Positions 4,589 through 59,800 of a stretch of 64,000 nucleotides of DNA are shown here, piece by piece. Source of the DNA: Ascidiella aspersa (Eukaryota); assembly GCA_963924565.1 (NCBI GenBank), contig OZ004615.1, positions 8,928,001 through 8,992,000 on the forward strand. The letters are read 5' to 3'. A program made the position numbers and the translations under genes. Position 1 is the first letter of the stretch, and each line of letters starts with the position of its first letter. A model generated the notes under the pieces. That model saw nothing but the letters and a program-made list of their open reading frames with translations. It searched no databases and had not been told where the DNA came from.

Positions 4589-7500
4589 ATGAAAGTGGAA
4601 GCGTTCGATATGACAAATATGGAAGAAGACGAGGCAAATGAAGAAGGTGGGTTGGAATCGCTTAGCAAACTCTTATTTTCGAATATAAGATACAAATAAA
4701 TATTCACAGTAAAATTTCGATTGTCAACAGTCGCTATAGCTTATAATATCGAGATAAACTTCAAACCTCCAAGAGAAGTTTACTTTGTAAAATTTGCGGC
4801 AAATATTTATTAACATTGTTAGTAAAAATGAAAAAAAATGTAGCTTTTTCGTTGAAAGTAAGCCGTAATGATCGATGTAACAATAGTGTATTATGCTAAT
4901 TTGTAAGTGTTATTTTTAAGAGCTATTTCGTAGGGGTTTTTATTTGGCAAGACTGCAATTTTTTTAAAGTTATAGAAATGTGTAAGCAAGCAAAAACGTT
5001 TAAATAGTTCGACAGTGCTGCGAATATATTTTCGATGATTTTAAACATAGTTTCTGAAGAAACTTTCTTAACGTCTATTTTTGTTTCTGAACGTCTATTT
5101 TTGTTTTACTAAAATCTAAATTTAAATTAATAGTCACCATCATATAATAACGAAAGGTAAAATATAGCCCATTGCTCATACTACTGGGTACGCATTTCTA
5201 TAATTATTTTAAGCAAAGCAGCGTCCCGCTATACATCACATCTTTTTCGGGCCAAGCCTTATTTACATACAGTGCTCAAGCAATAGTTGTTGGCTGTGTT
5301 ACATTCTTTACTGCAATGTTAACGTTTGATACTACTATTAATAGTAAGCGTAAATAGAACAATAATAATGACAAATTCGATAGTGGCTAATCCTCCTTAT
5401 GTACAAAATTCTCAGATGCCAATCTTTTATAGGAAATTAATTGGTTTGTGCTGTTATTTAGAAATCTTAGGCTTAGTTTTTCAAGGACGTCTAAAATATA
5501 AATAGAACACAAAATTGTCATTTACTTGTCGAACTACAAAGATCGTAAAATAAAAAAGTTTCTTTTAAAATGTTTATGGAAATATGGCAACCAGATTAAT
5601 CATGTTTGCTTAATGCGCATTTAAAACATCATTATTGTTTAAAACGATGCGACATAAAATTTATGCAAAAATATGTGCTTGCAATTTTGCCGACTGAGTC
5701 ATTAAATGCCAAAAATTTGAAAGATAAACAAAATTTATTTTATTTATACTAACAGCTTAATCTTCTTTTTTTACGTGGGGCGAAGTTTGAAATATAGCGA
5801 AGTAGGGTGTTATTGGGTATTTCAAAAAACGTTTGGCTGATGACGTCATCGAGATAAAAGGCGTTGCGAAAGCGTTGCGTGTCCTTAAGCACTTTTAGAC
5901 ACTCTGTTACGCGTTCTACGTCAATCAAGCGCAACAAACAAACACTCGGGAGAGACAAACATTTTCTTGCGAGATTTGCCTTGCGCGACACTGTATGCGC
6001 AGCTGGCAAAGAATCCTCTCGAAATGCGGCGTCTTGATAACTTGGGAATGTTGTTCGCCTCCAAAATTTTGGACCGGTTTACTGGCGCATTTCTTAATCT
6101 CCTAATATCGAATTGCAATCAATAGAAAATGGCTATCGGCATTCGTAACGGTGGTTTGGGTTAAATATAATTGAAAAAATGTGTAATTTAAAAATTAGCT
6201 TTTTTAATTTACTCACAAATTGTTTCACTCACAAAATTATTTTTTCATTTTGTTTTACTCACAAAATTATTTTAACTACAAAACAAGAAACTATACAACT
6301 TGCGAAGGCCTGAATTCCAGCGATGAACCCTAAACAAACTCGGTCAATATTTTTGTGCGTATCTTCTAGATCCTCAAGTGTCACTGCCCGTGCACAACGA
6401 CTCCATCTACGTGGGATCGAACCACTTCAGCGATTGCGGCGGGCTTTCGGGCGACCCTTTTCCGCTGGAATCGAGCGGCAACTGTCCGGAGCTATGCGCC
6501 GGATGCCACAAGCCCATCTTCGACAAGTACTACATGTGGATCGACCACCGGGCTTGGCACGAGGCGTGCGTCCAGTGCAGAATGTGCGGGCAAGCCCTCA
6601 AGGACACCTGTTACCTCAAGGACTGTAATCTCTACTGTCGACAGGATTACAACCAGTAAGTGACTTAATGAGTTTTCGTGCAATGTTCGATTAGAGTGTG
6701 GAAAATTTTTATGATAGCAACCAGTCGCGTTTCCACCTCCACCAGTCGCGTGTATTAATGTACCACTAACGTGTTTTCATGTTTTGGGGCAAACAGACAG
6801 AACTTGATTATTCACCTAGAACTGAAAGAGATTTGTATCAAATATTTTGACAGATCCAACTTAAGAGTGTATTGCTAAGAAAATGTTTTGCAAAATCTAC
6901 TTGAGTTTTTTTTTCAGTTTTTACTATGATTGAAAACATTTAACCGTTGGTTTCAATCAATGGTGAATTCACTTGAAAAGGTTTACTGGCGGGACCGCGT
7001 CTGTCCAACGACTGTCATTCCTCGAAAGTAACCATCCTCTTCGAAATAAAATAGCAGCGACTGGTGATTGCTTAGGATTTGATAAAAAAAAGTCTGATTT
7101 AATGGCCATTAACCTCACACTCCCCTAAACCACTTTGGTGGGAACACTCCGATGTCGGCCACGCAGTTGTCTGGTTTCATTCGGTCTGGGTCTGGGCATT
7201 ACGTTGATGTGAGAAATAGCGCGTTATTGCCGGGAAGTCGGTTTTCGATTCGCCTGGAATGGCGATATCTCCTTTTCAGTCGAAAGCCACAATTTCTGTT
7301 GGTCTAATTGACGGATGCCCGCTTCACACCGTTCCACCGGGCCAACAATACTTTCGAAATGGCAATTTTTGCGCTACCGGGAATTATCACCCTGCTATTG
7401 GTGCGCCGTGAAGCGTGACGTGGCCTGGAATTGATGAAGATTACAGCTGCGTGGGTGGTGCGAGCGACGAGCATATAGACCCCATTGTGATTTTCACCAG

Positions 7501-25500: not shown

Positions 25501-28500
25501 TTTGAAGTTTCGCAGAAGCCGTGTCGAAAGGTGAGTGAATAAATTTTCCGGTGTTAGTTAGGAATAAACGAGGAAGACCCACCTATCCTCCGTATTTCAC
25601 TAAAGTAAGGTCTTTACTTTCGTTTGACCAAGGACTTGTAAACCATTATTTAGAGCGGACATTTTGTTAGCCGCTCACACTCTTGGGGCCGTTGTAGTTC
25701 TTTAAATTTAACGATTTAAAAAATGAAAAAAGCTCGTTATGCAGAGAGTGTACTGGGTTGAAACGAAAAATTCGGCTGGTTTTTCGAGCACGACCTTCTT
25801 GTTGAGTCTGTTAAACGGACGACAGACAAGTCGAAGCGCCGCCGCGTCCCACCCTTCTAAGGTTCGGAGCAACGACGGGCAATCGGCATTAGCGGCAGAC
25901 TTTATTGTTGTTTTTCTTGAAAATATTGTTGCCGACAGTCGGGTATCCCCTTTCTATCTGTTTGGCTGCGTAGGCCTGCACACAGACGTCGGGACAATAA
26001 AAGCGGAACTGTCCCAGACCAATTAGCGAGCCCAGGGTAAGCATCTTATTCGATTGCTGGGCTTAAGTCTATAATCCCTAGCGCCCATTTGAGGGTCCAC
26101 TTTTACGAGTAACAGGAGCTGCCCGGAATAGAGAGTGCTGTGGCTACTGGATCAAACTCACACGACACACGTCCGATATTTTACTAGTTCCTAAAGCCAA
26201 TTCACGGTGGATGAAAAACGCTACGATAATTAACATAGCGTAAACAACAGTACTCACACGACACACGTCCGATATTTTACTAGTTCCTAAAGCCAATTCA
26301 TGGTGGATGAAAAACGCTACGATAATTAACATAGCGTAAACAACAGTATACCTCTGTGTATCCGCCAACACCAAATTGAAGACAGCTCTCCCAGCTTTGT
26401 GTTTATGGTTTTGAGTTTTACTTGATGTTACAGGAAACACTTGTCTTAAATATAAAGATGGTTGAATTTTGCTTAGTAAAAAAATTTGTAATTTAATTGA
26501 TCGATTGATATTTTTTGACTATCCGAAAGGTAGTATTACTTAATGTTTTAATTTTATTAAGTGTTGGCATATATATGCTTGGAAAAATATATGATTGGAC
26601 ATTTCAGACATTTTAAAATATTCTTTATTTGGGAAAATTGGTATTAGCTATTCAAGGCATAAAATGATTGGTATTTTATCGATTTTAAATCACGAAAAAT
26701 CAAAACATAGATTTCATTAATCGTTTTGTATCAGATAACTTAAGCAACTTACAAATCCTTGAAAATGGTATGTTTGGCAGCAGCACATAGCGAAGCGGTA
26801 CAAACTTAGAATTTACAAATATCACAGTACAGTCGTACAATCATCGAGAAGGCATTCAATTTTAGTTTTACCAGCTTGCTTCGGGGACTTTCGATTATTG
26901 AGACGCTCGTCAAACGATAGCGCAAATTTATATTTGCCGCCATTTTGTTGTTTGGATTATAATCTGTTACTTTTGAGTTCTTCTTGACAATACTTAAATG
27001 TTCTAGCAACGAATAACACCTTCGTTCATAGGTTTTGTACGCACATAAATAATTGAAGCTCAATGTTATTCCGTTGTCCAATACATCCAACACGTTACAA
27101 AAAAAAGTTACATGTGTAAAATGTATTCTTGTTTCAATAATGTCAAATTGGGTTGTTTAATGTTAACATTAAAAATATATCGGTATATAAAAGTTAAACT
27201 TATCCCTTCTTTCGGTTCACCTGTCCTGATATTTCCCACAACAAATAGGTATAAAATATTTTTTTTATATGAGTTTATTATTATGTATTTAACAGGTTCG
27301 CGAAACATTGGCGGCGGAAACTGGACTTACTCCACGAGTGGTTCAAGTGTGGTTTCAAAACCAACGAGCAAAAGTAAGCGTTTGACTAATACAAAGCGAT
27401 TCTTTTATGTAATTTTTAAGTATTTAAATTATTTTGCTCACTTCCGCCATCACAGGTCAAAAAGCTTGCTCGACGCCAAACACAAGGTGACGCTAGTGGG
27501 CAGGATTCGTCTCGTGGCAACAGACAGCGAAGAAAGAAAACCAATGACTCAGATTCAGACAGTACGTTTACAATTACAACTTTTCCACCATTTTATTGCC
27601 TTTCAATACCACTAAAGTGTATAAAAAATGTTTTGAATATTTTAAATGAGTAAAAACGCTATGCATAAATATAGCCTATCGTAGCCTACTGTTAATCATA
27701 ATTCAACTAGGCTACCTAAATAAGTTAAAATTCCTGTAACCTCGTTGTTCGTTAACTAACTTTGAAATGACAGAAATGATTTGCTTCATTTTTTAAGTCG
27801 TTTAATATAGATTTAAAAGGTATTTTATAGCATCATTTCAGTTATGTAGGCTATGCCTCAAACATATTTTTACTAATAACCATTGGATGAATCGACAATT
27901 ATTATGTAAGGAAACATTGAATATAATTGTCTTTTCCAGACGAGATATCTAGTCCGGGGTCATACACCTCAACAGCGTTTCACGACAGTTACAGATCGCC
28001 TGGTAGCGTTCACACTTCGCCAACGGCTGCGTCGGAAAGCAGTACGAGTATTTTTTACTCGTCAAGTCATCAAGCCCACGGTAGGATTTTAAACCGCTAA
28101 CACTTAAACTTAGCCAAGTAGGCCTACTCGAAATGAGTTAATTGTATCGGCGTCGGACTTATAGTACAAAAGGCTAAAATATTAAATCAATGATTAGTTT
28201 TTTCAGTAATAAATAGAAACAAGCTTTGTAATGAAAACAATATTCAAAGGACAAACATTTTGCATTAAATTCATAGATATAACAGCGAGATTATACAAAT
28301 CAAGCAGAACATATTAAACGTTGCTCGGCTCGCAGGTTTATTAACCTGTTTCTGGTGACCTGTTTAATTAGCCTATTATATTTTCCACTTACCTAAACGT
28401 AACCTACTCTTACACTAGATTCAAATATCATGTACGACGACTACGACCAGCATAACTTGCCCCCTTTGGACCCAGGAGAAGACGGCTTCGTGACTCCACA

Positions 28501-28783
28501 ACCGCCCCACTTGGGAACTATTGGGTCCACAATTACACCACTTGAGCTGGAACCCAGGTATAGGACACCAGAGCACCTCAACGACTACAACAATAACGGC
28601 AGCAGCGGCAACATGCTTGCAACAATTGGCGACGCAAATATGCTTGGCGGTTCGCCGGTTGACGGTTTTCCTCAGCAGTATTCGGGCGCACCTGCCTTGC
28701 CACACTTCCAAGCTCAAACCTCTGCGGACGGGAATCCGATCGACCGGCTAATGTACATGCAGAACAGCTACTTTCGCACTTAA
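4589..28783 (+). CDS. Lmx1: LIM-homeobox transcription factor Lmx1 (2 LIM domains + homeodomain), ~506 aa, 10 coding exons
   Basis: Phase-consistent GT-AG exons: 4589-4646, 6370-6655, 23587-23707, 24183-24288, 24651-24734, 25355-25530, 27296-27373, 27456-27561, 27940-28080, 28419-28783 (1521 nt). LIM1 [26 protein letters not shown]; LIM2 [27 protein letters not shown]; homeodomain [57 protein letters not shown]; C-terminal [14 protein letters not shown] matches the Lmx1a/b tail. The start codon (MKVEAFD..) is the least certain part. Confidence 0.95.
6370..6655 (+). CDS. Lmx1: Lmx1 exon encoding LIM domain 1
   Basis: ttctag acceptor and CA|gtaagt donor; complete double zinc-finger LIM pattern in ORF 6378..6659. 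Confidence 0.95.
6656..23586 (+). promoter_or_regulatory. ~17 kb Lmx1 intron with many GC-rich candidate cis-regulatory modules
   Basis: Intron boundaries fixed by LIM1/LIM2 phase (CA|A). About 15 CpG-rich blocks of 0.3-1 kb are separated by AT-rich spacers; no credible protein and no obvious transposon structure. Confidence 0.6.
14379..14406. repeat. (TA)n microsatellite
   Basis: About 14 TA units read directly. Confidence 0.9.
23955..24092. mobile_element. Tc1/mariner-type MITE (~138 bp) in the Lmx1 intron that splits LIM2
   Basis: 25 bp terminal inverted repeats CTTTAGACTTTGTTGTCTGAGTCAA / TTGACTCAGACAAGAAAGTCTAAAG (1 mismatch), flanked by TA on both sides. Confidence 0.75.
25355..27561 (+). 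CDS. Lmx1: Lmx1 homeobox exons (25355-25530, 27296-27373, 27456-27561)
   Basis: Spliced translation gives the Lmx-class homeodomain; phase-0 introns after KPCRK and after WFQNQRAK. Confidence 0.95.
26156..26348. repeat. Tandem duplication, 2 x 96 bp
   Basis: Unit ACTCACACGACACACGTCCGATA...AAACAACAGT at 26156 and 26252, one mismatch. Confidence 0.95.
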
Positions 28784-43357: not shown

Positions 43358-45664
43358 TTGTTTGTTTACCTGTAATGTTAAGCAGCTTGTCTTCAGAAGG
43401 CAACTGTTTATGTTTCTCAGGAACATAGCGTACGTGCTCACGTGATGTTTATCTATTTACTTGCAATGCCAGTTTGTGTACTGTGCATATGTACTCTCAC
43501 TTCGCTTTCTTGTTATTTTTCCCTTTCTATTTTTTCTCACTTTTTAGATACGTGTGTTGTAGCACAACCGTCCGGGGATTCCCCTTTTCTTGAACATACC
43601 ATAGTGTCAAACAATGGTTAGTATCAGTGCTTCTAAACCTCTTACCAGTGCAAATCTCTGCAAAAGTTCAAATTTGCGCGGAACCATATTATATTTTCGT
43701 TCATTTTAAAAACGGAATATGAAACTCTCGCGTATTGTTTTCTATTCGGGAATGCAAGTTATTTTCTAATACCCGTTATAGAAATACCTAATTTTGCGTG
43801 ATTGAAGTCCTCATAAAACGATTGTAAATGTATATATTACCTCATATATTCTAGTATTTACATTAATCTTACCTTTCGCGTTACACACATAGCCGCACAA
43901 CCGTACAGAAACGCTTAGTTTAGTCACACATATTTCCGTTATGTTGCTTAATGAATATTTCAAAAAACGGAAATTAACACAAAAAAATGTAATTATCTTA
44001 GGTGGAAAGTAAACTTTTAATATATCTATAAAAGAGGTATTTCAAAAAAAAAATCGCAAAATCTCGTGTTAATTTAATGAGCTAGTTTGCGTCAAAACAA
44101 TACAACATTACTTTTTTATTATAACCTCCGAAGATTGGATTACCTATAGGGATATTTTCTCAAAGAAAAAACACTTGCAGCTTGACAGATAGGTAAAAAC
44201 AATGCTAATTGAGAGCAATGTGCTTAATGAAAAGTAATCCATGTACGAACCCCTTATAAGTGGCACAATGCCTGCTTGGAGCAACAGTATATTTTTCCGT
44301 TGTTGTCCAAGGGCTATTTTGGAGAAAGTTAACTTAAAATTTGTTCTTTTCGTAGCGATAAAAAATTTAAAAGGTAATATTATTGGTAATATTACAATAT
44401 TATTTAAAATAATTTATGTTCTTTAAGTGATATAACCAAGCATAAATTATTTCGAGCGCTATCTTTTAAATTGTTTTGACAACTCCATTGAAATACCTTA
44501 TATTAATTATATAAGCTATCTTTGTAACTATGTAGGTATTTTTCAAAAATATTCCCTTGAAACTACTATACGTTTATGGAAATATGTACTCTTTTATTGT
44601 ATTTAAACATTTTTTCTAAGTTTGAAAGGAGCGGGCATATAGTTTCAGAAAGCCTTGCAAGGATTGCACTGGTGGTAAGGTTAGAAGCACCATTATTCTG
44701 AATATGTCATTTTCCCAAAGTGTTTTTTACCTATGTATTATTTCCTTGGCTCGGAACGTTGTAGATCAGAGTGGTTCAAAGTGGCCAGCATTCACAAAAC
44801 TACTTGCGTATTACTCGCGGCTTACATAGCTAGGCTGCATTAAAGCTACGAAAACGTGAACGCTTTATTTAATATAGTTAAACTTTTTAAACCGTTACAA
44901 AACAGTTTGAACACATTTTCTATCCATTAAAAATCTATTCTTGAGTATTTCCTTTAAGGAAGTGGTTCTTGAAATTTTCGCTTTTGCCTACACACGAACC
45001 TTCCGAGCCCTGCATTTATCACTGAACGATAATTTGTTTGGGAGCGCTCGTTTCTTCGAGAAACGTGATAGTTGTGATCATCCAAAGTTACGTTTCCGAC
45101 CAGAAGCTCTTTCTTATTCACGTGATTGGATGGTGTGTGTTGCATTTAGGTTATAGAAACCCGAATTAATCCATTTCTTCTCGGCACATGATTTTCGATT
45201 AATATTAAAAAATGCCTATTAAAAATCTCGAAACTAAAATATTAAACGATAGTATAAGCGAAACTGCGTTTTTTTAAAGCAAAAAACGACTTATGATGAT
45301 GTAAAACCTCCAGATATATCCCAAGAACAATTACAACCATTACGATAAATCACTATATACTGCAACAGATTACTTAATAATCATACCGGTATAAAATATT
45401 ATCTACAGGCGTAAACTTTATTTTCAAAATGTTTTCTTGTGAAATGATGACATACCTTGTAGTTCATAACAACCTTATTCCAAAAAAGACATTGACAGTT
45501 TTGCTATTAGCCAGACGCAACTAAAACGCGTTATTTGTAAACTTATGTTTTGTACAAACAACCTTGTTAAAGCAAATGTAATTTTATTGGTACACCGAAA
45601 GCCATAGCAGACTCACCAAATTTGTCGATGAATGATGCAATCAAGTCCGGCTAGAAAAACAACT

Positions 45665-45739
45665 AGCCTGCAGTGAGGTTCGAACTCACGACCTCCGGCC
45701 ATGCCGGGACCGTCGCTCTACCAACTGAGCTACACAGGC
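45665..45739 (-). tRNA. tRNA-like gene (Thr-like scaffold) with non-canonical anticodon arm; nominal loop triplet GGC; possibly a pseudo-tRNA or repeat-associated Pol III unit
   Basis: GCCTGTG TA GCTC-AGTTGGTA-GAGC G A-CGGTC-CCGGCAT-GGCCG-G AGGTC GTGAG-TTCGAAC-CTCAC TGCAGGC T; intact A and B boxes, cloverleaf fold, T5 terminator 5 nt downstream; anticodon arm 2 nt too long and lacks U33. Confidence 0.65.
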
Positions 45740-46003
45740 TTAGAGGGGAGCGAGTCAAGAAATAACCACACGCCAATGCTTGCTACATTCTGTTAATACA
45801 AGCAACTTCATATTAAAGGGGATACACAGTACCTTATCATCATTCAATTAAAGATACACACACATATGTGTTCAGCAATGTAGGAAAGTATTGGCGGAAC
45901 GTAGCAAGCGTTGTCTTATGGTTGTCCCAATGTGAAGTTGCTTCTACTAACAGAATGTAGCAAGCATTGGCGTGTGGTTATTTCTCGACTCGCTCCTCTC
46001 TGA

Positions 46004-46078
46004 GCATGTGTAGCTCAGTTGGTAGAGCGACGGTCCCGGCATGGCCGGAGGTTGTGTGTTCGAACCTCACTGCAGGCT
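46004..46078 (+). tRNA. Second, slightly degenerate copy of the same tRNA-like gene
   Basis: GCATGTGTAGCTCAGTTGGTAGAGCGACGGTCCCGGCATGGCCGGAGGTTGTGTGTTCGAACCTCACTGCAGGCT then AGTTGTTTTT; 3 substitutions relative to the minus copy (one acceptor-stem and one T-stem mismatch). Confidence 0.6.
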
Positions 46079-48811
46079 AGTTGTTTTTGTAGCCTGTCTT
46101 GCTTGCATCATTGAAGGACAGATTCGGTGAGTCTGCGATGGCTTTCGGTGCTAATGATACGTAGGTCGTAATCGTTGGTCAAAAATCAGCTTCAGAAGGG
46201 CAACATCACAGTTGCTAAACACATGTGTGTGTGAATCTTTCATTAAATAGTTTTAATGGGTAACGAAATATCATTGAATGGAGCGCTTTACCAGAAACGA
46301 ATCCTACCAAACCCTATATGATGCAAAGTAAGCCGAAACCTATGCCCTTGTTTAAAAAAGTTCCAGTTAAAAACACAATAATCCTTCTGAAGAAGTGTAT
46401 TGGGTTAAATAGAATACCATCGTTTTCCTGTTTAGCTTTTGCCGTACGTAACATAGCTATATGGACACACACCATCTAACAATTTTAAAAAAGCTTTACG
46501 ACATACCCGACCTCGTTCCGCTGAAACAAATCGTTTTCTAGATTTTTCTGCTGCGAGTTAATTTTAGCAATTTTTTTGCCAAAAGGAAACACTTATTATA
46601 AATAACTATCACTTTTTTTGTTTGCCTTTAGTCAGTTCATATATAATGCTTTGATTATTGCAAATTGTTTGGATCTTTTTTAAGTTTTTGTTGACAATCT
46701 CGACTTTTGTTTATTTCCCTAAACCTCCTTTTCCCTTACTCTTTTTGTATTTTCTATTGTCGTGTAAGCTAACAGTTTGGTTGGTACCGTGTTAGTGTAT
46801 TTTCCATTCGTTTTCAATTATATGTTGTACACCCGCGTGGGCCTGTATTACGTTCTTTCTATGCTATTTATGTATCACTACTTCGTCATTAAACGCCCGT
46901 TATACTTTTTCGATTTTGTTCATTCTTTTAGTTAATTGCTTTGCTTTAAAATGCAATATTGCTAAAAAAAACTTATTAAACTCTTTTAGAAAATTCGAAA
47001 TGCCCTGCCAAGTGTAGCAGTACATTGCCTCGTTGGTAAAACTTTTTAAAAGTAAACCGCATGTTAAACAATAGGGTGTATCTTTATAGAATCCAAAACC
47101 ATCGGTTTAGCCAGTCGATCACTGCTCCGCTGACGCGTATATTAACAAGTAAAACTCATAGTTGAAAACTCGAGTAAAAACAGGATCAGACGTTTTGTTT
47201 AAAAGGAAAATATATTTCGCCAACTGGCATCATCAGTTCCTGTAAGAGTACAAATAAATAAAATCAGAGCGCAGCCATCAACAAACCAATAAAAGTAAAC
47301 AATAAAATATTAAAACTTGATAATAGACTAAAAACGCAATGAAAAGTACTACAGCCTCGCAGGCAACACGGCTGGAACAAATGAGTAGGCGACGCAAATA
47401 AGTGAAGGAAGGGGAAAAAATACATATGCGCAGTGCGAGATGCTAGACGGTAAAATGCGGCTCGAATGGGTAGCGATAAGATAGCGGTTTATCTTATTCG
47501 CGGTAGAACCATTTTTTGGATGTTAATTGTTGCGTTGACTACCTTTAGCCACTTAGTTTCACATATGTCCAACTTTTTCAAAGGTGTTTTGTGTAAAAAT
47601 GTTATGCTGAAACACTCTGCAATGGTAGGCCTCTGCCTCAGCATGGACATGTGTTTGTCAGCGTAGTGGCGCAGAAGTGCTGCTTTGTCGTTATTTTCTG
47701 TTAAAAGTACGTCCTGTTATAACGCTCTACACACAAAAACTTACGACATCGATTCGCTTTCGTTTTCCCCCCCGCACATAAAGCTGATTTAATTAATGAG
47801 TAAAAAATTAAAAAAAAATATTCTCATAGCGTAAAAACAAACGCAGTGAGCTAATACATTTTTTTCCCAATACCGTTTTAATTCAATATAATTTCCTAAA
47901 CTTTACAAATTGGAGTTCAATTTAGGTTTAACTCCTTGAGACAAACAGTGATTTAGCATGAAGATATTTACTCTCAAGGGCGTTCATTCAAAGCCTTCTA
48001 AGGTATTGACAAAGACGGGATCTCTATGCTTTGTTTACCACTGGACATACCGACGCTTGAATCGTTGACCTATTCACACAACGAAGTTTATTTACACATC
48101 GACTTGGCAGAAAACAAGCGTTTTGGTCGTACGTTACCTCGTGCCAACTATATCTACGTACAAATCTTAGCCATTGTTCAGGCAAAAACTTGTGAAACCG
48201 GAAACGCGGCAACCGCTCTGAAGCGGTCAATGCTTAAAGAGTCGAGGCATTTAACTCACTGATGGTCGAGCGCTAAATATTTACTTTACGATGGCCCGGT
48301 TGCCAGTTGAACGTTTTACGACGTCCTTTTTTTCGAGCGTTGGGAATCCTGTCGCTGTTTGCACAGAACCAACGAAAAGCACTGATTCATTAGTTTGTCG
48401 ATATCATTGCTGGCCCGGTAAACAGCAGCAGAGTCGAATTTTGTGGGTTTAGTTTAGAATTTACGTGGGATCTTACAGGAGGTATTTTCGCAGTTTTCGA
48501 CATATGGTCCGAAATGAATATAAAAAGAGATAAGGTTTTGATTTTCAAAAATAGCAGAAGAACAGTGCTAAGACTACTGGATTTGTAATTTTCTGCGGTC
48601 GACTACAAACCGCCACACTTTTGTTGTCAATCAATCAGATGAAGCATTGGCATAACCAACGAAATACTTTTGTTTTAGCAAAGAACCGAACTATTTCGTA
48701 CAAGGTTAATGATATCTACTGAAAATACAGTAATTCCATTAAAGTAATCTAAAGTTATTAAAAGTTAGGCGAGTTACAAAATTTAGATTTGCGAATTTAT
48801 CCTTCATTCAA

Positions 48812-51800
48812 ATGGGCGTGTGTTGTTCAAAACGCGGCGTGGTGGCTGTCAAAGAAATTTCTGGCCTTCCAGCCACTGAAGAAAGTTTGTTAATTAAGGA
48901 AACTGTGGGTGACGTTTCAGGTAATTATAAAATAATCCAGTTATCTACTAGTTTGTAATTGACAGTCTTATTCAAAAAGTATGCTGATGGTCAAACCATA
49001 ACCATATCAATTGCTTTGCGTATAAATTTCTAACGATAGTTAGAATAAGTTGTTGCGCCATATAATTTTTGCATAATTTTAGTCATTATATCTTTTAAAT
49101 AACACAACATTTAGGCATATAGACGTTGTTGTAAAACTTTAAAATATTAATTATTGTAAAAGGAGGCCACAGAAATAAAATATGTGGATATAAAATGAAT
49201 AGAGTGAAAGTAAAGTAGTTATAGGTTACCAAATCCGTCATTTTGTGCGACATTTAGCGTTTCCGCGTTAGAAGACGCATAGAATACTTTTTGCCTAAAA
49301 TGAATTATGGGCGTTTTGTTAGGATTGTATCCCAACATATATAAACAAAACATGCTATGATCTTTTGTACTAAGATTACAGTTATATTCAATACTGCAAA
49401 ATATTATGTTAGTGTATTTTATATGTAGGCTATCTTGTGTCATTGAGCTGCCTTACACAATTTTAAAATAGTTTTTCTCTGTTGCACACCAATTCGCCCA
49501 TTAGTCTGGATTAAACAGTTTATTGATACTCATGAACTCTAAGTGGAATTAATACCTGATGAAGTCAGCGCGAAGGTTTTTGTCAGATTTGTGCCGGAAG
49601 TAAATCATGTGCAAGTGTAGCCTATTAGTAATTAACGGTTATCCAATATTAAGTTTCCTACGCCAAACAATCCTATTTGTGATTCAGGTGCAAAGAATAC
49701 AAACGGAATTGAATCAAGGCTGAATTTACCTAACGTCGTTGAAAGGTACTAAATCGTACACATTTATTACAGTAGTAAATTGAGGTATTTATTTTTTAAC
49801 AAATTGAGTAGGTTCCATAGACCATGATCGGGTGCTTTATTCTGAATAAGTTTTCAACTTTCGAATGTCGGCATTGTAGGCTTATCTGTTGAAAAAATCT
49901 AAGTGTTTTCTTTATATTTTTTGTACGCTTATGGATGATACCCTATACTTCAAAGAAACAAAAATAAATTTTCTTATTTCAATTCTATATGACGATCCAT
50001 TTTTCAATATTTGGATAATAGCGACGTTAAAAGATTTATTTTAAAATAAAAAATGAAATAATACGATAGTGTTATGCCATTGTTAACAACAGGTAACAAT
50101 TTGTTTTACAGTTCTCGTGAGGTGGCAACACAAGAGGCGGAAACTATCCATAGTATTGACCAACAGAATAATTCGGCTAACAGGGCGACCCTGATTTTCC
50201 CAACCTACTCTGGTTACCGGGCGCCAAGTAACTCTAGCCCTGGTTTCGGCGCAAAAAACTACAGCACTAATAACCCTCCGAAAGCCTACGTATCGCCCAT
50301 TCCATCCAGAGCTACAGGGTCGTCGCCCTTAGCAAACCGCAGTGCTCTGGATTACTTGTCAACTCGTCCGTCGCCTACGATTACACGCTATGCACCGATG
50401 GCGTCGCCTTCTTTGCCCCGCAAAAGTATGCCGAGTCCATTTCAAATGCGATCCACGAAACTCGTGAATACCAGCGGCGATTTTGACTCCGATCTTGAGT
50501 CCGACTCGGAAAAAGAAGTTTCACTTAATGTGACGTCAATCGCTGAAAGGGTCGAAGTTGCTGACGAAACACCACCACCAACAGGTAGATTTTAAATCTC
50601 GGAGGTTCTTAAAACTTTCCAAAGCGAAAAAAATAGCAAATATTTCATCATAGATAAAACTCATCATTAATTTTTTACATGTGTAGAGCGAAATCCCCCT
50701 AATTTTGAAACGACAACCCAGAGCACTGATGTGCAACAAGTGAACTCTAAGTCCAGCAGTTCGACAATGACAGAGGTATTTCAAGTCAATCTCTTGTTAA
50801 TATGTTTCATATGAAAACACATCATAAATACATTCTTACGAATTAGAAAGGAAACATTTGAGCGTTTTATAGATTAACTTGTTTGACTGTAAATTGTTTA
50901 TGACACGAAAGAATATCTATGGATTTAATATGTTCAACGATTAGTCGTAGTACAGTTTGTTTAATCCTGTTTATAGCCATTACCAACTACTGGTGACAAA
51001 ATAAGCTCTGCGAAAGCGAGATCTCGACAAGACAAAGTTTCGTCGAGCACCAACACAATGGAAGGTAGAATGATCGTTGATGCTATCCATAAATTTGACA
51101 TGGAATTTTGAATTTTAGTGCGCTAATTGGCATATTCGTGTATAAAAATATCAAATTGTATTCTATGTAACTGCCATATCAAATTAATCAACAAAAGTGT
51201 TTGGATAACGCAAAACCGAGCGATTGCTTTCCGAAGCGTTTTAATTTGCACCCAAATTATTTGAATTGCGTTTTATGACGTTTGCTTTTCCACCGTGTCA
51301 AGCGTATTATTAGGTAACATGTGTAACAAAGTTAATGACGTCACCAATGTGCATAGTGACGAACGATGTTCAAACAAATACCGAGACACCAAGCCACGAA
51401 ACCCCCTTGACAACTTCAAGTGACTCACAGACCGCTACAGCGAAAGAAGATTTTATTCAGGTATGCGTTACGAATAATCGTATTTCAAAGGCAAAACCAA
51501 ATAAAAAACTTTACACTCACAAATTCCAAACTAATGGAACATTTTCATTTTTAAAAACGTCAAAATTTCGGAGTTTTTAATAACAGACGGTGGACGCGTG
51601 CGTTGGAACCGAGAGTGAAGTCTACTTCCGTTCTGATGTCACAGTACAAGTTATCAATAAAAAGGAGTTAAAGAAAAGGCGAAAGAGGCTTACGGCCAGT
51701 ATGGCGGTAGGAACAGACAAAAGTGAGACTGCTGTTATAAATATTATTGGTTACTGGCGTATTCAGATAATTTTAAGAGCAATATGTAAAGTTGTTTTAG

Positions 51801-54800
51801 TATTACAACATTAGAAAACATTTAACAGTTTTAAAAACGCTAAATGAATTTGAGATTCTGTTTCGTTTTTGTTCAAGGTCTCAACGACGCGAAATCGCCA
51901 ACATTTGTTGAGCCGAACAAATCCAAATTGCCAAAGTAAGACTAAATATTTAGCAGTAATAGCCATGAAGCAATTAATCTTTACGGTTTCAACGCATTTA
52001 GAATCATTATGGAGCACGTGGACGAACCTCAAACTCGGCCACCATCCCCTCTGGCGACATTTAGCAGTCAGCAGACGGAGCGGGAAATTCCGAAACCAGA
52101 CCCAATTATAGAAACTTTGGAAAACGCGTTTTACAGATTTGCAAGGTAGAGTCGATACATTCTGTCTGCTCTAGCTAAACTGCCAATTTACCATACCGTG
52201 ACAAATAAGGACCACTATATTTTGTGTTTCGATAACAATCATTACTTTCCATGACCTCAACAATCAAAGAGGTTTGCAAGTTAAACCCTTTACGTAGCAT
52301 TAAGTGCTAAAAACGTATAAAGCTCTTTAATCGAAATTCATATTTTTCTTTTGTAATTTAGGTACGGTGAGGTGAACAGCGAAGGTCGGGAAATGAACAA
52401 CAAGAACTGGGCCAAGCTTTGTCGAGATTGCGACTTTATTGACAATCGAAATATACTCGTCGGAGATGTGGACGTCATTTTCTCGCGTCATAAGTAGGGC
52501 GATGATTTTTTTGACCTAAAAAAATGAAATTTTGACTCATTTGAAATGCATTAATTTAAACAACATATTGTTCTTTGAAATACCGCATTTGTGTATTGGC
52601 GTCGTCGACCACACGTTTTTGATACACAAGTCAGTCCTTTTTTGGGTATATGCAAAACTCTTCAAAATGCTTAGTTAATTTTTTTGTCTAGGCCATTCAA
52701 AAAGACAAACACCTATAAAAAAGCCTAGAAAACAAGACGATGATCATTTAAAAAAAATGTAAACAGTTGAAATACAAGGTAAAAATAATTGCAGAAAATT
52801 AAAAAAGCGTATACCGACACCGTACATTACTCTAATGAAGATATAATGCAGTTAAAATGTACGTTAAATGTAATTCCAAAATATTTTTTGTGACGAAATT
52901 TAACTGAACGACAATTTCAAAAAGCTAACTCGTTTTTCATTTTGTAAACGTGCATTTTTAATCGATTTTGACTTGAAATAATGTTGACAAATGTTGACCC
53001 AACATGAAAATTTTGACAGTTTTTTAGTTTTTTTGACAAGTCATAAAATAATCGCCCTAGTCATAGATATAATGAAAATAAGAAATCGTGATTTTGTGTA
53101 ATTGGTCCTACTACAATCTACATGCTGAAAATTAACATTTTTAAAATAAATAAGCATACAACCTATTAAAATGAAAGCAGTGTAACAGATTCTAAGCTGT
53201 TTGCATGTATTTTTTTATTATTTCGAGTGCGTAAAGTTAACATTTTGTAGGCCTAAAGGAGAGCGTTTGATCACATTCGATATGTTCCTGAACTGCCTGA
53301 ACGAGATAGCAGACCGAAAGTTGACCAAGCAGAAGAAGGATGAAAAATCAAGGAGGGAAGTTATTTACCACAGAGTGATTGGGAAAGCTCCGGAACTGGT
53401 TGGAATCACGGTTAGTAGAAACAGCACTTTTAAGAAGTAACATTTGCTCGTGTTCTGCTGCATTACAGTTGCGCTTTATCGGCCTAAGTGACCGTAGAAG
53501 AACTCATGGTATATATTTAGTTTTAGAGAACTTAAACGATTTAGGTTTTACACGTTTAAAAAATCTGGGGTTTTGCGAAATTTAAATAAAAGCGATTTTA
53601 TGACAAAATTATAACACTATTTTAAAGGACACAAACCCAAACCTTATATGATTTTACCGAAAATTGCTTTACAATATGCTTATTGCTTATGATGTGGATA
53701 AAATTGCCTTGAATTTTTGAATAAATACGTTCATTTCAATCCTAAATGCCAAATATTATTTTATAAAATTTTCACTCCGTATTCACAAATGTTTTGTGTT
53801 TTGTACTTCTTATGTTTTGTACAGGAGGTTTCGAAAACTGGAAATGTTAGTCGAATGACCGACCACCACCTGTATCCGGCTTCACACAAAATGCGGTTAG
53901 TTGTATACATATTATAAACTTTGTTAACTAAATGTTCAGTGTTTCCCAACCTTTTTGACACTAGTGCCCCCTTGGGCTAAATATTATTTCATATCGCCCC
54001 CCTCATCTTGCTTTACAGTAAAGTATCATATTAATCGTTGTCTAACATCATATTGTCTGCACTTTTGTTTCGATAAGCTGTCCGTAATATTTTAGGTTGT
54101 CTAACTTACATTCACTATAGGAATTTATGGATACATTAATTCACCAGGTTATGTCATTACAAGGAAATATTCAACTTTCTGCACCAATACTATCAGGGGT
54201 CGGCAACCTTTTCTTGTCACTGGCACCAATCAAACTCAGAAAGGTCTCTGTGGGCCGCACAAAAAGTAAACTAAGAATTGTGTTATTGGAATGTTAGAAC
54301 AACTGTGAATCAGGCGGACCTCGGATTTTTTCATCCATACTACTAATGAAAAGTGCAATAAAGCTAGTTTGAGGAAACGCGATAACCTTAGTGTTTATAG
54401 ATAGTGTAATTCAGTGTTTGTTAAGCTCTTTAAGTCCTGGCGCACCTGGCGAGCGAAGCGAGCGCAATATTTTTGGGGTATACCAACATTTCTTTTAAAT
54501 TTCGTGCTAGTATTTATTACAGAGCGTTTTATAGAATAACTTGTTTGACTGTAAATTGTTTATGACACGAAAGAATATCTATGGATTTAATATGTTCAAC
54601 GATTAGTCGTAGTACAGTTTGTTTAATCCTGTTTATAGCCATTACCAACTACTGGTGACAAAATAACAAATCAAAAAATGTTAAAAAATATATGTCTAAT
54701 ACTTTTGAATACGTTTTCCTTTTGTCCGCAACCGTAAAAAAGCGCTAATCTATTCCAAAGACAGAATTAAAACGTAAACAAACTGGACGTAGAAAGATCA

Positions 54801-55923
54801 TTGGCGCGAAGCGCAAAATTTTTTGCCCGTACTAAGTTAAAATCGTCAAAAAGTATTTAAAATGGACTCGTGTCAAGTTGTCAAAGAGGTGGCGGGCCGT
54901 AAGTTGGCGACCCCTGCTTTAAATATACAAACATTTTGCCGCGTATAAAACTGTGAAACACTACAACAACCAACAACTTTACATAAGAAAGTCAATTATT
55001 ACGTAACAATGGTCGGAAAACTACCACAAGTTCGCAGTACAAAAGTTGCCATTTAAGGTTAAAAGTTACCTACAGTCCTGTTTGTTACTATTTTTATGTG
55101 AACTTTTTATAAAATTTAGCCTATAAGTACTTTTATGTAACGCCCCCTTATGTGCATTCAGCGCCCCCCAAATTAGAAACAGATCCAAAACGCCCCCTTG
55201 TAACTCGCCAACGCCCACAAGGGGGCGGTACCGCCCACGTTGGGAACCTCTGCTTTAAACGAAAGAAAGCTTATCGTTTTCTGATTCTATAGGAAATACA
55301 ATACAAGTTACTGCACCTAAACGTGGGTTTTCATTTTACGTGGGCTGAGCAGAAGCCTATAGCAAAGGGCTACTCAACTGGCGACCGCGGTCCGAATGCG
55401 GACCTTTTAGTGTTGAATACGGACCTTCTGTCCCAGTATTTTCCTTAGCAATATGATTTGATGAGTTTTTCTTGGCAAACACTTGCTGCTGTTCATCGAA
55501 AACCTCTTTCTATAGTAACGGATATTACAGTATTCACATAGTGAAAGCAAAAGACATATGTAATTTATACCGTATTACATTTTGTATGACTGTAAATTAT
55601 TTTATGATATAGTTATAACGGGCCTAAGCAAATTTTCAACTTTTGTAACTAGACCTTTGCTAAAAATAGTTGAGTAGCCATGCTATGACACAATCACTTT
55701 TTACAGGTTTGACGAAGAAGGTAGGGGCTTAGGCATCGATGAGAAGTTTGAGATGATTGATGCCCATTTCGGATACGTGAACGGTTACAAGGAGCGCAAT
55801 CAGTACGATCAAAAACTCGCCGGACGTCCAACCTCAAGCTCGTCCAGCATAAGACCTTCCTCAAACTCCTCAAAAATCAGACCAGGAACATCTTCCTCGC
55901 AAAGAAGTCAAAGCCCCAGATAA
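48812..55923 (+). CDS. TPPP: Tubulin polymerization-promoting protein (TPPP/p25-alpha family) with long N-terminal extension, ~612 aa, 13 coding exons
   Basis: Exons 48812-48920, 49688-49745, 50112-50584, 50687-50775, 50977-51064, 51357-51460, 51587-51722, 51878-51935, 52002-52145, 52362-52493, 53251-53410, 53825-53895, 55707-55923 (1839 nt, phases consistent). p25-alpha domain LENAFYRFARYG..GREMNNKNWAKLCRDCDFIDNRNI..DVDVIFSRHK..ITFDMF..GKAP..VSRMTD..SHKMRFDEEGRGLG..GYVNGYK..YDQK. The domain call is very secure; joining of the 5' exons is inferred from phase continuity. Confidence 0.88.
54194..54916. mobile_element. hAT-type MITE nested in the outer element, containing a copied host-gene fragment
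   Basis: CAGGGGTCGGCAAC ... GTTGGCGACCCCTG termini, subterminal GGGCCG motifs; no clean TSD. Confidence 0.7.
54522..54666 (+). repeat. 145 bp direct copy of 50860-51004 (end of TPPP intron 4 plus first 28 nt of exon 5)
   Basis: 144/145 identity read directly (atagattaac vs atagaataac is the only difference seen). Confidence 0.95.
55363..55682. mobile_element. hAT (Charlie-like) MITE just upstream of the last TPPP exon
   Basis: GGCTACTCAACT / AGTTGAGTAGCC inverted termini; CGGACC subterminal repeats. Confidence 0.7.
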
Positions 55924-56815: not shown

Positions 56816-59800
56816 TTATGCATTGTTAGATTCTGATTGTCCACTTTCCCAGCTGTCGCTCTGGCCGTCCCCATAAGGAGGAACGTTAGTAGGTGGTTGC
56901 TCTTTCTTAACGTGAACCATCCACAGATTCCTCCAGTAACGAGTTTTCATAAGCTTATGAAAGCGAGTGCGCATCGCTGGAACGCGGGAAAAATACAGGA
57001 ACGGGTTCAGCAATGAGTTTAGAGTTGTGATCTGAACAAAGGTACTTCGTCAGTTAGATTATGAACGTTATTAACTGAATAAAAGAAACTGTTAAGGATG
57101 CACCAAAAATCTTACAGTTGATGATCTACAAAATGTACTTTGTTTGGTAGGATAAATACCATTACATAATAAATATAGGAAACGGCTAGGCTAGCTAAAA
57201 GCTAGTTTACCAAAATAAACTTTTAATATACTGTGCCCAATACATTAACTGCGAGTAAATGCACGGCAATCACTATTCTAAAGTTCTCCGTACTAAATTA
57301 GTTGAACTAAAACGTAACGCATTCTGTTTCACAACAGGAAGTTGGTTTTATGTCAGGGATATGTATTTATGCCACTTTATTTGTTTATGGGCTAAAAGCG
57401 GGGAATAATTCATAATCATAGCCAGTTAAATATTTGTAGTTACGTATTTTTACCTATTTCGGTGCATTTATCGAAATATTGGCCCTGTTTTAATATACCC
57501 TCAGCTACCCTCGCAGGGCCTGTTATGTCCCCTTAAATGCCTTACCTGCAACAGAATGTTGAATATTTCCTTCAGGCTTCGGTCGTTGTGTGCGTATGTG
57601 TACATGATAAAGATCATGAGCGGGCACGTTGTGATGACGAACACAGTCATGATGGCAAACATCGAACGCATCACGCGCACGTCACGGCGACGACCCACCT
57701 TGGTGCGACGTCGTTTCTTTGCTGCAGTGAGGCGACGCAAAGTCCCGATCATACTTTGCGTGACCGACTGTCGCTGATTGGAAGGTAAACTTTTTTTGCT
57801 CTTTGGTCGCATCACGACTTTGGGTGACGTCGCCTGTGTGGACTCGGCTTTTCGATATAGAACGGGTTTACTAACCCCAGGACTGATTGGAGTTCGTGGT
57901 GGGCTAACTGGGTTAAGTTTTTCCTCTTGTTTGTTGGATTCCCTGCTGCTGTCCGTCAGTTGAGTTTCGTCTGTGTTATTGTGACTACAACCTTCCCGAC
58001 TATCTGTATTCACTACGTTAAACTGGAATGCGCCATTCACTGGGATAAATACGTCGTCGTCAGGAGTTGTACGGCAAGCGTTTGATAGAGTTGGCAACGC
58101 AGCGTTGTTTTTCGTCCCATTTGTCGAACTAAGTTGGGTCTGTTGACTGCCGCTCGACGATTTTCGACTGTTGGCTGTCGAATGCCGAATCTTCTGTGAT
58201 TGCTTATGGATGCCGTAAAACATGAGGGCGTATATTACCACCGTGAATAGGAAGGTAACGCTTGACATGGCGCTGGCAAGAAGCAACTGCAACTTTGTGA
58301 GAGGTGGCAACTGTTGTGAACACGACTCATCGAAGCAATACTTAGCATCGGGGTGCAAGTTATGAATTCTGTGAAAAAATAGGCTGATTCTAACTATACT
58401 TGGCACAAATTTACTTAGAGTTTAAATAACTATATAAAATTTCGTGTAGTTTAAGCTGACTTTTTTCGGCAAAACTAGTTTAAGCTGTATTTTTCGGTAA
58501 TACAATTTACATTTATGAGATTTCAAATCTAAAAGCGAGGTAAAATTTAAACAAGAAAGAAATTATGTTTTATAATTGATGTAAAAATATCAAAATAACT
58601 TTATAACAGTTCTACAAGCTGATAGATACCTCGCATAGTATTATTTTTTTTAAGACAGCTTACATAATATACCCTACCCACGGACTCAAGCCATAAGACT
58701 TAAATAAGAACAAGATCAACGCCGAATAAAACCAAGTTCGAGATTAGACCAAACTTTGACTAGTACCAAATAGTCGTAGTACCGCCTAAATCGGAAAAGT
58801 CCTAAACCCGTCGGAATAACACCTAAATCAGTGCTTTTCAACCCGTGGGATGGTACGCACTTGTGCGGATGAAAAAAATTGTAACGCGGATGACTAACGT
58901 CGTGCGAATAAATGTGCGGATGAAAATGGTGCATGTTATTGTTTTTTATTATGTGTAATACAGTAATCAAATAAGCTGGTGCGCCCACTTATGCGTTACA
59001 GGTACAGTAATCTCAGTGGTTCATTGCAGCTTAAGCTATCTATTTTATATCGGTCAAGGCTTATAGGCACACTGTTTTAATACACAAACCCTGTATTGTT
59101 ATTTCACTAATAAAACTAAAGGTTGTAAACTTACTGTACTTGTTTCGTGCGGATGGAAATTTTCCGAAATAATAAAGTGCGGATGAAAATTTTAGAGGTT
59201 GAAAACTTGAAAAGCACTGACCTAAATGATCAAAATCAGACCTAAACAACACTTTGCCTAACCTGAAATCCAACTCCTATGTACATCACTAACTCCCCTA
59301 GTATTTCAAACCTAAACCATTTTCTAACCCCACCCATTACCCGCCAATAACCAAAAACAGGGCCAAAAACCCGGTGCCAAAACAGCGGCACCCCAACGGT
59401 GCCGGCCAAACTAGGGCGCTCAAACGTCGACACAAAAAATGGCTGAAGTCAGACCGACGGCCCCCTATCGTCCCATATAACCTATACTGACACTACAGTT
59501 TCAAGCGTTATTTTTGCCATTTAGGCCTATTTTAGAAGAATTTAGGGCGTATTTCGGCAGATTTTGGTCTTATTCAGACGCTTTTGATCTTATTCTGTAT
59601 TGGAAATTACTGCGTATTGGGCTTTATTATGTCCTTGGTCCTAATACAATGGTTTTATAGACTTTTCTGCTTTACGTATTGCTTCTTTTTAGGTCTTGTT
59701 GTGTGTTCGTATATCCACCACCAAAAGCATATACCTCACTATAATAACTAGGACCAGGGGCTGATCCAATGAGCACTAGGCCATTCTCCGCTCCCAAACT

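Follow-up and report, generated by a model that had tools for sequence, protein, structure and literature searches.

LC8 is described as dimeric and as engaging two client chains through a motif of 8 to 10 residues, and sites anchored on N, M, S, or G are known (PMC12057147). The closest described system is L2 of KANK1, which binds 7 to 15 LC8 dimers cooperatively through sub-threshold sites of the TNT, VNT, IGC, VMA, and VGE types and, together with LC8, forms a hinged rod across the gap between membrane and microtubule (PMC12803091). ASCIZ/ATMIN, Nup159, and FAM83D (Chica) also carry several LC8 motifs per disordered region (PMC5746249, PMC10046861), and the long linkers of ASCIZ are reported to lower cooperativity and to give heterogeneous complexes (PMC10046861). 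Human TPPP/p25 is reported in reviews to bind LC8 in competition with tubulin, and TPPP dimerisation is reported to be crucial for bundling (PMC12047068; PMC4542545). In this study, we analyzed a long TPPP (p25-alpha) gene of the ascidian Ascidiella aspersa, which lies in a window of 64,000 nucleotides (contig OZ004615.1, forward-strand positions 8,928,001 to 8,992,000) and for which an earlier note had proposed an array of about nine LC8/DYNLL-like motifs. On balance, we favor the view that the linker of this paralogue contains approximately seven LC8-type motifs, weak and mostly with an anchor other than glutamine, which would bind LC8 multivalently and pair two chains as a beaded, partly stiff duplex running from a predicted lipid anchor to the p25-alpha domain.

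The gene occupies 48812-55923 on the + strand and has 13 exons with GT-AG introns; it encodes 612 amino acids (aa) with no internal stop, and its array-bearing part corresponds to exons 3-7. The splicing of exons 4-6 was deduced from splice signals, frame, and orthologues. All nine of the motifs quoted earlier were present in the spliced translation (50116-51718). Three of them end at or within 4 nt of the 3' end of an exon (exons 4, 5, and 7), which bears out the remark that some lie at 3' exon ends, and a further three begin within 5 nt of a 5' end (exons 3, 6, and 7). The protein contains neither TQT nor the K-x-TQT of the ELM type, as had been stated; the anchors of the nine sites are Q, N, M, and G. 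The gaps between successive 8-mers from motif 2 to motif 9 are 8, 20, 3, 9, 9, 6, and 13 residues, and motif 1 lies about 160 residues ahead of the cluster. The disorder claimed for this region was supported by prediction: the AlphaFold2 model of the Ciona orthologue has no secondary structure in residues 1-420, with a pLDDT mostly below 50 versus 90-98 in the domain, and FoldIndex was negative in six of seven blocks over residues 51-401 of the linker. The low pLDDT in the Ciona linker is partly expected because few alignment rows cover it, and AlphaFold2 in single-sequence mode gave the Ciona protein a mean pLDDT of 34.9, which was uninformative.

To score the motifs, we used an LC8 matrix of per-position counts tallied by hand from 67 verified motifs in S1 Table of PMC5746249. 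These are 67 of 69 non-duplicate rows, two off-anchor rows having been dropped and the authors' red rejection marks not being visible, and the 3.3 cut-off was taken from the same paper, whose matrix differs from ours. Residues 56-405 contained six sites scoring ≥3.3, against 2.07 ± 1.26 in 2000 shuffles (p = 0.007; p = 0.013 with 30-residue block shuffles). A threshold-free statistic gave p values of 0.003-0.013 in all six matrix settings, and when the anchor was left unscored but restricted to Q, N, M, S, or G, five sites scored ≥4 against 0.92 expected (p = 0.001). The excess was located in exons 4-7 (6 versus 1.71, p = 0.0014), where all six of the nine motifs with scores ≥3.3 are found (Table 1); exon 3, residues 353-405, and the tail contained no site at that level. 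The motifs thus scored better than shuffled sequence, the check that the earlier note had named, and the array was not refuted. The cluster exceeds chance, but the number of sites is nearer seven than nine; REVATQEA (2.3) and FETTTQST (2.1) score low, and VDACVGTE reaches 3.0.

Among named proteins, the closest are XP_078494081.1 of Ciona intestinalis (631 aa) and XP_039269969.2 of Styela clava (512 aa); each is annotated as 'uncharacterized' and is 93% identical to this gene over exon 10. The Ciona linker had eight sites ≥3.3, including one true TQT, versus 2.10 in shuffles (p = 0.0005), and the Styela linker had none versus 1.43. Scanning of metagenome contigs yielded two loci among 85 pattern matches; since they are 99.5% identical to each other, they represent one further, ascidian-like species, the third with an array (L011). 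Its available linker contained six sites versus 1.11 (p = 0.0005), its exons keep the intron phases of exons 5-10, and its equivalent of exon 5 is 415 nt long compared with 88 nt, with several sites of the V/I-G-T-D type. Three of the four linkers were therefore enriched, and the excess in Ciona and L011 also held with block shuffles and in six of six matrix settings. Comparison with related species, the second check named in the earlier note, did not refute the array either: the motifs recur in two of the three orthologues with a readable linker but are missing from Styela. The canonical ELM pattern K/R-x-TQT had no match in any of the four linkers; because only 13 of the 67 known LC8 sites fit this pattern, it is not required of LC8 clients. 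As separate observations on L011, the intron after its exon-7 module has a GC donor at 2240/2241, and its long exon contains a 35-nt stretch (963-997) with an acceptor-like start that has 71% similarity to the beginning of the exon-8 equivalent (2542-2576), pairing a VGT with a VQA site.

In a global alignment, six of the nine motifs faced a Ciona 8-mer scoring ≥2.4 within two residues, compared with a background of 14% of linker positions (binomial p = 4e-4; the 2.4 threshold was picked after looking, and the global alignment is partly circular). Motifs 1, 4, and 6 were those without such a partner. The motif 1 position reads TQE or THE in the proteins P0156 and P0158 and scores -3.3 in Ciona; at motif 6, SQ is retained in Ciona with a score of 0.9. 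Motif 2 aligns with the true TQT site of Ciona (8.9) and with a VNT site in C. savignyi, and the Ciona counterpart of motif 3 scores 5.3 at offset 0. At aligned positions, the anchor changes between Q, M, N, and G, with the flanks still following the LC8 pattern (TQS/TQT/VNT and TMT/TQV). The middle site of the Ciona module, VSRGSQST, departs from the phage-display optimum given in PMC6607443 at three of its eight positions.

It is very unlikely, in our estimate, that an S/T-rich, low-complexity linker (T 17% and S 14% in exons 4-7), together with exon or motif duplication, produced LC8-like words by chance, with no LC8 function. At a loose threshold of 0 there was no excess (10 versus 9.6, p = 0.51), duplications have occurred in Ciona and L011, the array is absent from Styela, and false positives are said to be plentiful with short-motif matrices (PMC5746249), all of which would suit such an origin. 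By contrast, the excess survived both composition-matched and 30-residue block shuffles in three of four linkers, different anchors coincide at aligned places, and the invariant columns of exon 7 are concentrated in its motifs, as described below. Exons 4-7 are not DNA repeats of one another among the 20 largest of 39 repeat families, a result on which a plain tandem-repeat origin of the motifs was also rejected.

Exon 7 is the best-kept unit of the linker and comprises DACVGT, a middle site, a basic run, and SxxVGT. Of its 13 columns that are invariant across three species, 10 belong to the two 8-mers with a G anchor (p = 4e-4 by the hypergeometric test, or 0.04 when all three sites are counted). 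DACVGT is invariant in all three aligned rows and in a second copy in Ciona, which carries the module twice, and every copy retains the basic run; in the genome of A. aspersa, the only candidate for a second exon 7 was exon 7 itself. Such features could also mean that the module serves another partner or modification, either as a second site of acylation combined with a polybasic patch for membrane or tubulin, or as a Tctex1-type site, while the other motifs drift; Tctex1 is a dynein light chain with a basic consensus. DACVGT is more strictly invariant than is usual for LC8 sites, its Cys at -2 occurs in none of the 67 training motifs, and exons 4-6 show no identity excess in their motifs, each of which speaks for this explanation. 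We nevertheless regard it as unlikely, since the [VI]G[TV][DE] core is repeated six times in L011 and three times in Ciona, mostly with neither the Cys nor the basic run (a descriptive count, the pattern having been written after looking), and since Q-, N-, and M-anchored sites stand in the same cluster, all of which LC8 alone would cover. The glycine-anchored sites resemble those of KANK1 and that of MYZAP, which has a glycine anchor with I/V at -1 and +1, although MYZAP has a single listed site, one of the 67 training motifs (S1 Table of PMC5746249).

Several results weigh against multivalent LC8 binding by this linker. All of its sites are weak (2.1-6.6, compared with an average of 9.8 when the training motifs are scored on their own matrix), TQT is absent from both this linker and that of L011, and DACVGT, the most invariant motif, scores only 2.4-3.0. 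The shuffles ignore duplication of a single motif, which has happened in Ciona and probably in L011, and only 7 of 19 high-scoring peptides bound LC8 in PMC6607443. Identity to Ciona was not significantly higher in the motifs (21/64) than between them (16/75, p = 0.09), nor was it so for exons 4-6 only (9/40 versus 9/54, p = 0.33); the motif-free exon 3 is equally conserved (53/150). Styela lacks the exon-7 module as well as any site ≥3.3, and a long TPPP, P0012, has one site, which indicates that the long architecture does not depend on the array. The RefSeq model of C. intestinalis has no MG start, and the GxGxGxxGR motif of the domain is altered in all four long proteins that keep the segment.

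The SH4-type consensus consists of a Met-Gly start, a Cys within the first residues, and a Ser at position 6, and Fyn is reportedly a precedent for dual acylation of such a start. On this consensus, MGVCCSK at the N-terminus of the A. aspersa protein is a predicted N-myristoylation and palmitoylation signal. An MG start with a Cys by residue 5 was also found in Styela P0002, in C. savignyi P0008, and in the long TPPP P0012, with the Ser kept (MG..CS), so that an MG..C start is conserved in four of the five long proteins having an N-terminus, in agreement with the membrane anchor assumed earlier, here a predicted one. The missing MG in the C. intestinalis model is possibly due to a wrong 5' end. 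A transmembrane anchor was rejected, as no transmembrane stretch was found (best 19-residue hydropathy 0.94). P0012 (387 aa) is itself a distant member of the long TPPPs; it begins with MG..C, lacks both the LC8 array and the Rossmann-like motif, and groups with the ascidian long proteins.

At the other end, PF05517 matches the gene above its cut-off; the Ciona orthologue matches p25-alpha over 153 positions (E = 3e-47), and 132 of 166 domain residues are identical to Ciona, in the model of which the fold is confident. The domain probably binds microtubules, judging from its family. The protein shares the full p25-alpha domain with the long-type TPPP/p25 proteins (PF05517; PMC3498115, PMC12047068) but differs from them in an N-terminal extension of about 400 residues with an MG..C start, compared with about 50 in TPPP1, and in the replacement of GxGxGxxGR, the final GR of which is described as marking long-type TPPPs, by GRGLG-[IV]-[DE]-[DE]-[KL]. 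In this gene the Rossmann-like motif reads GRGLGIDEK (55720-55746), with GxGxG kept and the final GR replaced; because of this alteration, microtubule binding may differ. The same genome encodes an ordinary short TPPP of 169 residues (contig C3) with an intact GxGxGxxGR. In a tree of 28 rows, with a long-branch warning, the five long proteins lay on one side of a branch with 100/99 support, apart from the short paralogue; by sequence, the gene is a long paralogue in a separate clade from the ordinary short TPPP of its genome.

The resemblance to KANK1 L2 lies in a long disordered linker between a membrane-side and a microtubule-side part, with many weak, non-canonical sites anchored on N, G, M, or S, none of which passes strict prediction. 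No sequence relationship to KANK1 was shown. KANK1 L2 has 15 sites with linkers of 3-4 residues, whereas about seven unevenly spaced sites are found here; KANK1 reaches membrane and microtubule through partners, whereas a predicted lipid anchor and p25-alpha share one chain here; and KANK1 binding was measured (PMC12803091), whereas binding by the ascidian array is predicted. Since matrices missed some of the KANK1 sites (PMC12803091), further sites may be hidden in this linker. ASCIZ, Nup159, and Chica, which the earlier note gave as examples, are apt as multivalent disordered clients, and the uneven spacing resembles that of ASCIZ; however, their listed sites are mostly Q-anchored (PMC5746249, PMC10046861), whereas Q occurs in four of the nine sites here, none of them TQT, and KANK1 is the closer parallel.

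If LC8 does bind, myristoylation and palmitoylation would place the N-terminus on the membrane, and the single sites, too weak alone, would be occupied cooperatively in the manner of KANK1. Each LC8 dimer would grip the same motif of two chains, and the p25-alpha domains would therefore be presented in pairs, an arrangement that would fit dimer-dependent bundling by TPPP. With 3.5 nm per dimer, as in KANK1, seven to eight sites would give a duplex of about 25-28 nm, which would be hinged and not rigid because the gaps are uneven. The number of motifs changes between species (about 7 here, 8-9 in Ciona, at least 8 in the third species, and none in Styela), and reach would likely be set more by motif number per species, through exon duplication or expansion, than by exon skipping.

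The earlier note had pictured a semi-rigid LC8 rod between membrane and microtubule, with its length tuned by exon skipping. The rod has a precedent in KANK1 (PMC12803091), but the short, uniform linkers of 3-4 residues in KANK1 have no equivalent among the gaps of 3-20 residues found here, and its rigidity is doubtful. Tuning by the skipping of single exons was rejected on frame, because none of exons 2-8 (0/7) has a length divisible by three. To stay in frame, a skip would have to remove a block such as 4-5, 5-6, 6-7, or 4-7; exon 9 is in frame alone. No skip junction was seen among 199 mapped RNA reads, few of them exonic, at a depth too low to exclude skipping. These reads, from about 6 in 100 of one raw run, fell mostly on intronic repeats; the junction of exons 11 and 12 was present in two reads. 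Depth was 0 over the bins of exons 4-6 and likewise over the clearly coding exon 10, and the run is therefore uninformative on skipping. A near-rigid ruler of set length, zipped by LC8 and tuned by alternative splicing of exons 4-8, would draw on the KANK1 precedent, on the spacing of only 3 residues between motifs 4 and 5 and of 8-14 between several L011 sites, and on the blocks that can be skipped in frame; the Styela model could then be a skipped isoform that lacks the module. We consider such a ruler distinctly unlikely, given the wide gaps, the heterogeneous complexes formed with long ASCIZ linkers (PMC10046861), the frame of exons 2-8, and the approximately 165 motif-poor residues that separate the anchor region from the cluster. 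The favored reading remains a hinged duplex.

Table 1. Exons, motifs, and domains of the long TPPP gene of A. aspersa (window positions; scores from the LC8 matrix)
Feature	Position	Strand	Exon	Anchor	Score	Remarks
Exon 1	48812-48920	+				Start MGVCCSK; second donor possible at 48908
Exon 2	49688-49745	+				LPN motif aligns with both Ciona proteins
Exon 3	50112-50584	+				S/P-rich, predicted disordered; 0 sites ≥3.3
Motif 1, REVATQEA	50116-50139	+	3		2.3	Isolated; acidic residue at buried +1; doubtful
Exon 4	50687-50775	+
Motif 2, FETTTQST	50704-50727	+	4		2.1	Weak
Motif 3, SSSSTMTE	50752-50775	+	4	M	6.6	Ends at last base of exon 4
Exon 5	50977-51064	+				88 nt
Motif 4, VSSSTNTM	51037-51060	+	5	N	5.4	3' end of exon; without Ciona counterpart
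Exon 6	51357-51460	+
Motif 5, NDVQTNTE	51362-51385	+	6	N	5.7	Overlapping Q register 4.8; 5' end of exon; 3 residues past motif 4
Motif 6, TSSDSQTA	51413-51436	+	6	Q	4.1
Exon 7	51587-51722	+				Three-site module
VDACVGTE	51590-51613	+	7	G	3.0
SDVTVQVI	51632-51655	+	7	Q	4.9
Basic run	51659-51688	+	7
ASMAVGTD	51695-51718	+	7	G	4.6
Spacer, array to domain	51878-51935 and 52002-52098	+	8 and start of 9			P/S-rich; 0 sites
p25-alpha domain and S-rich tail	52099-55923	+	Rest of 9 (to 52145) and 10-13
Exon 10	52362-52493	+
Exon 11	53251-53410	+
Exon 12	53825-53895	+
Exon 13	55707-55923	+

Exon 3 contains blocks that are kept in Ciona and P0156 and partly in Styela, namely, TLIFPxYSGYR (50182-50220) and an acidic stretch of the DFDSDLES type (50479-50502), which are likely further binding motifs. 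A 145-nt stretch (50860-51004) that includes the acceptor of exon 5 and the initial 28 nt of that exon is copied in the last intron at 54522-54666, among repeats, with 99% identity. The genome has at least two full LC8 genes. A canonical, intron-containing LC8 lies on contig C1, and an intronless copy, about 80% identical to typical LC8 and possibly a retrocopy, lies on contig C7 of the assembly (G000; L005 1495-1767, - strand). Elsewhere in the window, two tRNA-Ala(GGC)-like copies stand in inverted orientation (45664-45740, - strand; 46003-46079, + strand), possibly a tRNA-derived repeat or foldback element. The open reading frames at 6327-6659 and 28403-28783 (+ strand) and 57501-58421 (- strand) resemble portions of a LIM-domain gene and of a GPCR-like gene. 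Exon 9, used as a query for homologues, gave three candidates, none of which passed; an ESM Atlas search with the Ciona linker gave no usable match; and the Pfam search of three linker exons and C. savignyi P0008 returned no family.

Multivalent LC8 arrays are known, as are TPPPs. Neither a long acylated TPPP subfamily nor the combination of an LC8 array with such a paralogue was found among the titles and abstract beginnings listed in searches of the open TPPP literature, and a term search of the available text of TPPP reviews returned no passage on tunicates or acylation. Tentatively, and with a probability that we place below even, the protein may be an ascidian one-chain counterpart of the KANK1 system, in which a lipid-anchored TPPP would use an LC8 ladder made largely of VGT sites to keep its microtubule-binding domains, joined in pairs, at a fixed distance from the membrane; the reach would vary between species through duplication or expansion of motif exons. 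If LC8 binds, this would be a second, independently evolved LC8-stiffened linker between membrane and microtubule, and one small protein, open to study in Ciona, would combine the anchor, the spacer, and the microtubule domain. The sites of the V/I-G-T-D/E type would then add many glycine-anchored ligands to a class with one example among 67. The natural series of site numbers could show how number and spacing set cooperativity and length, a question left open by PMC12803091.

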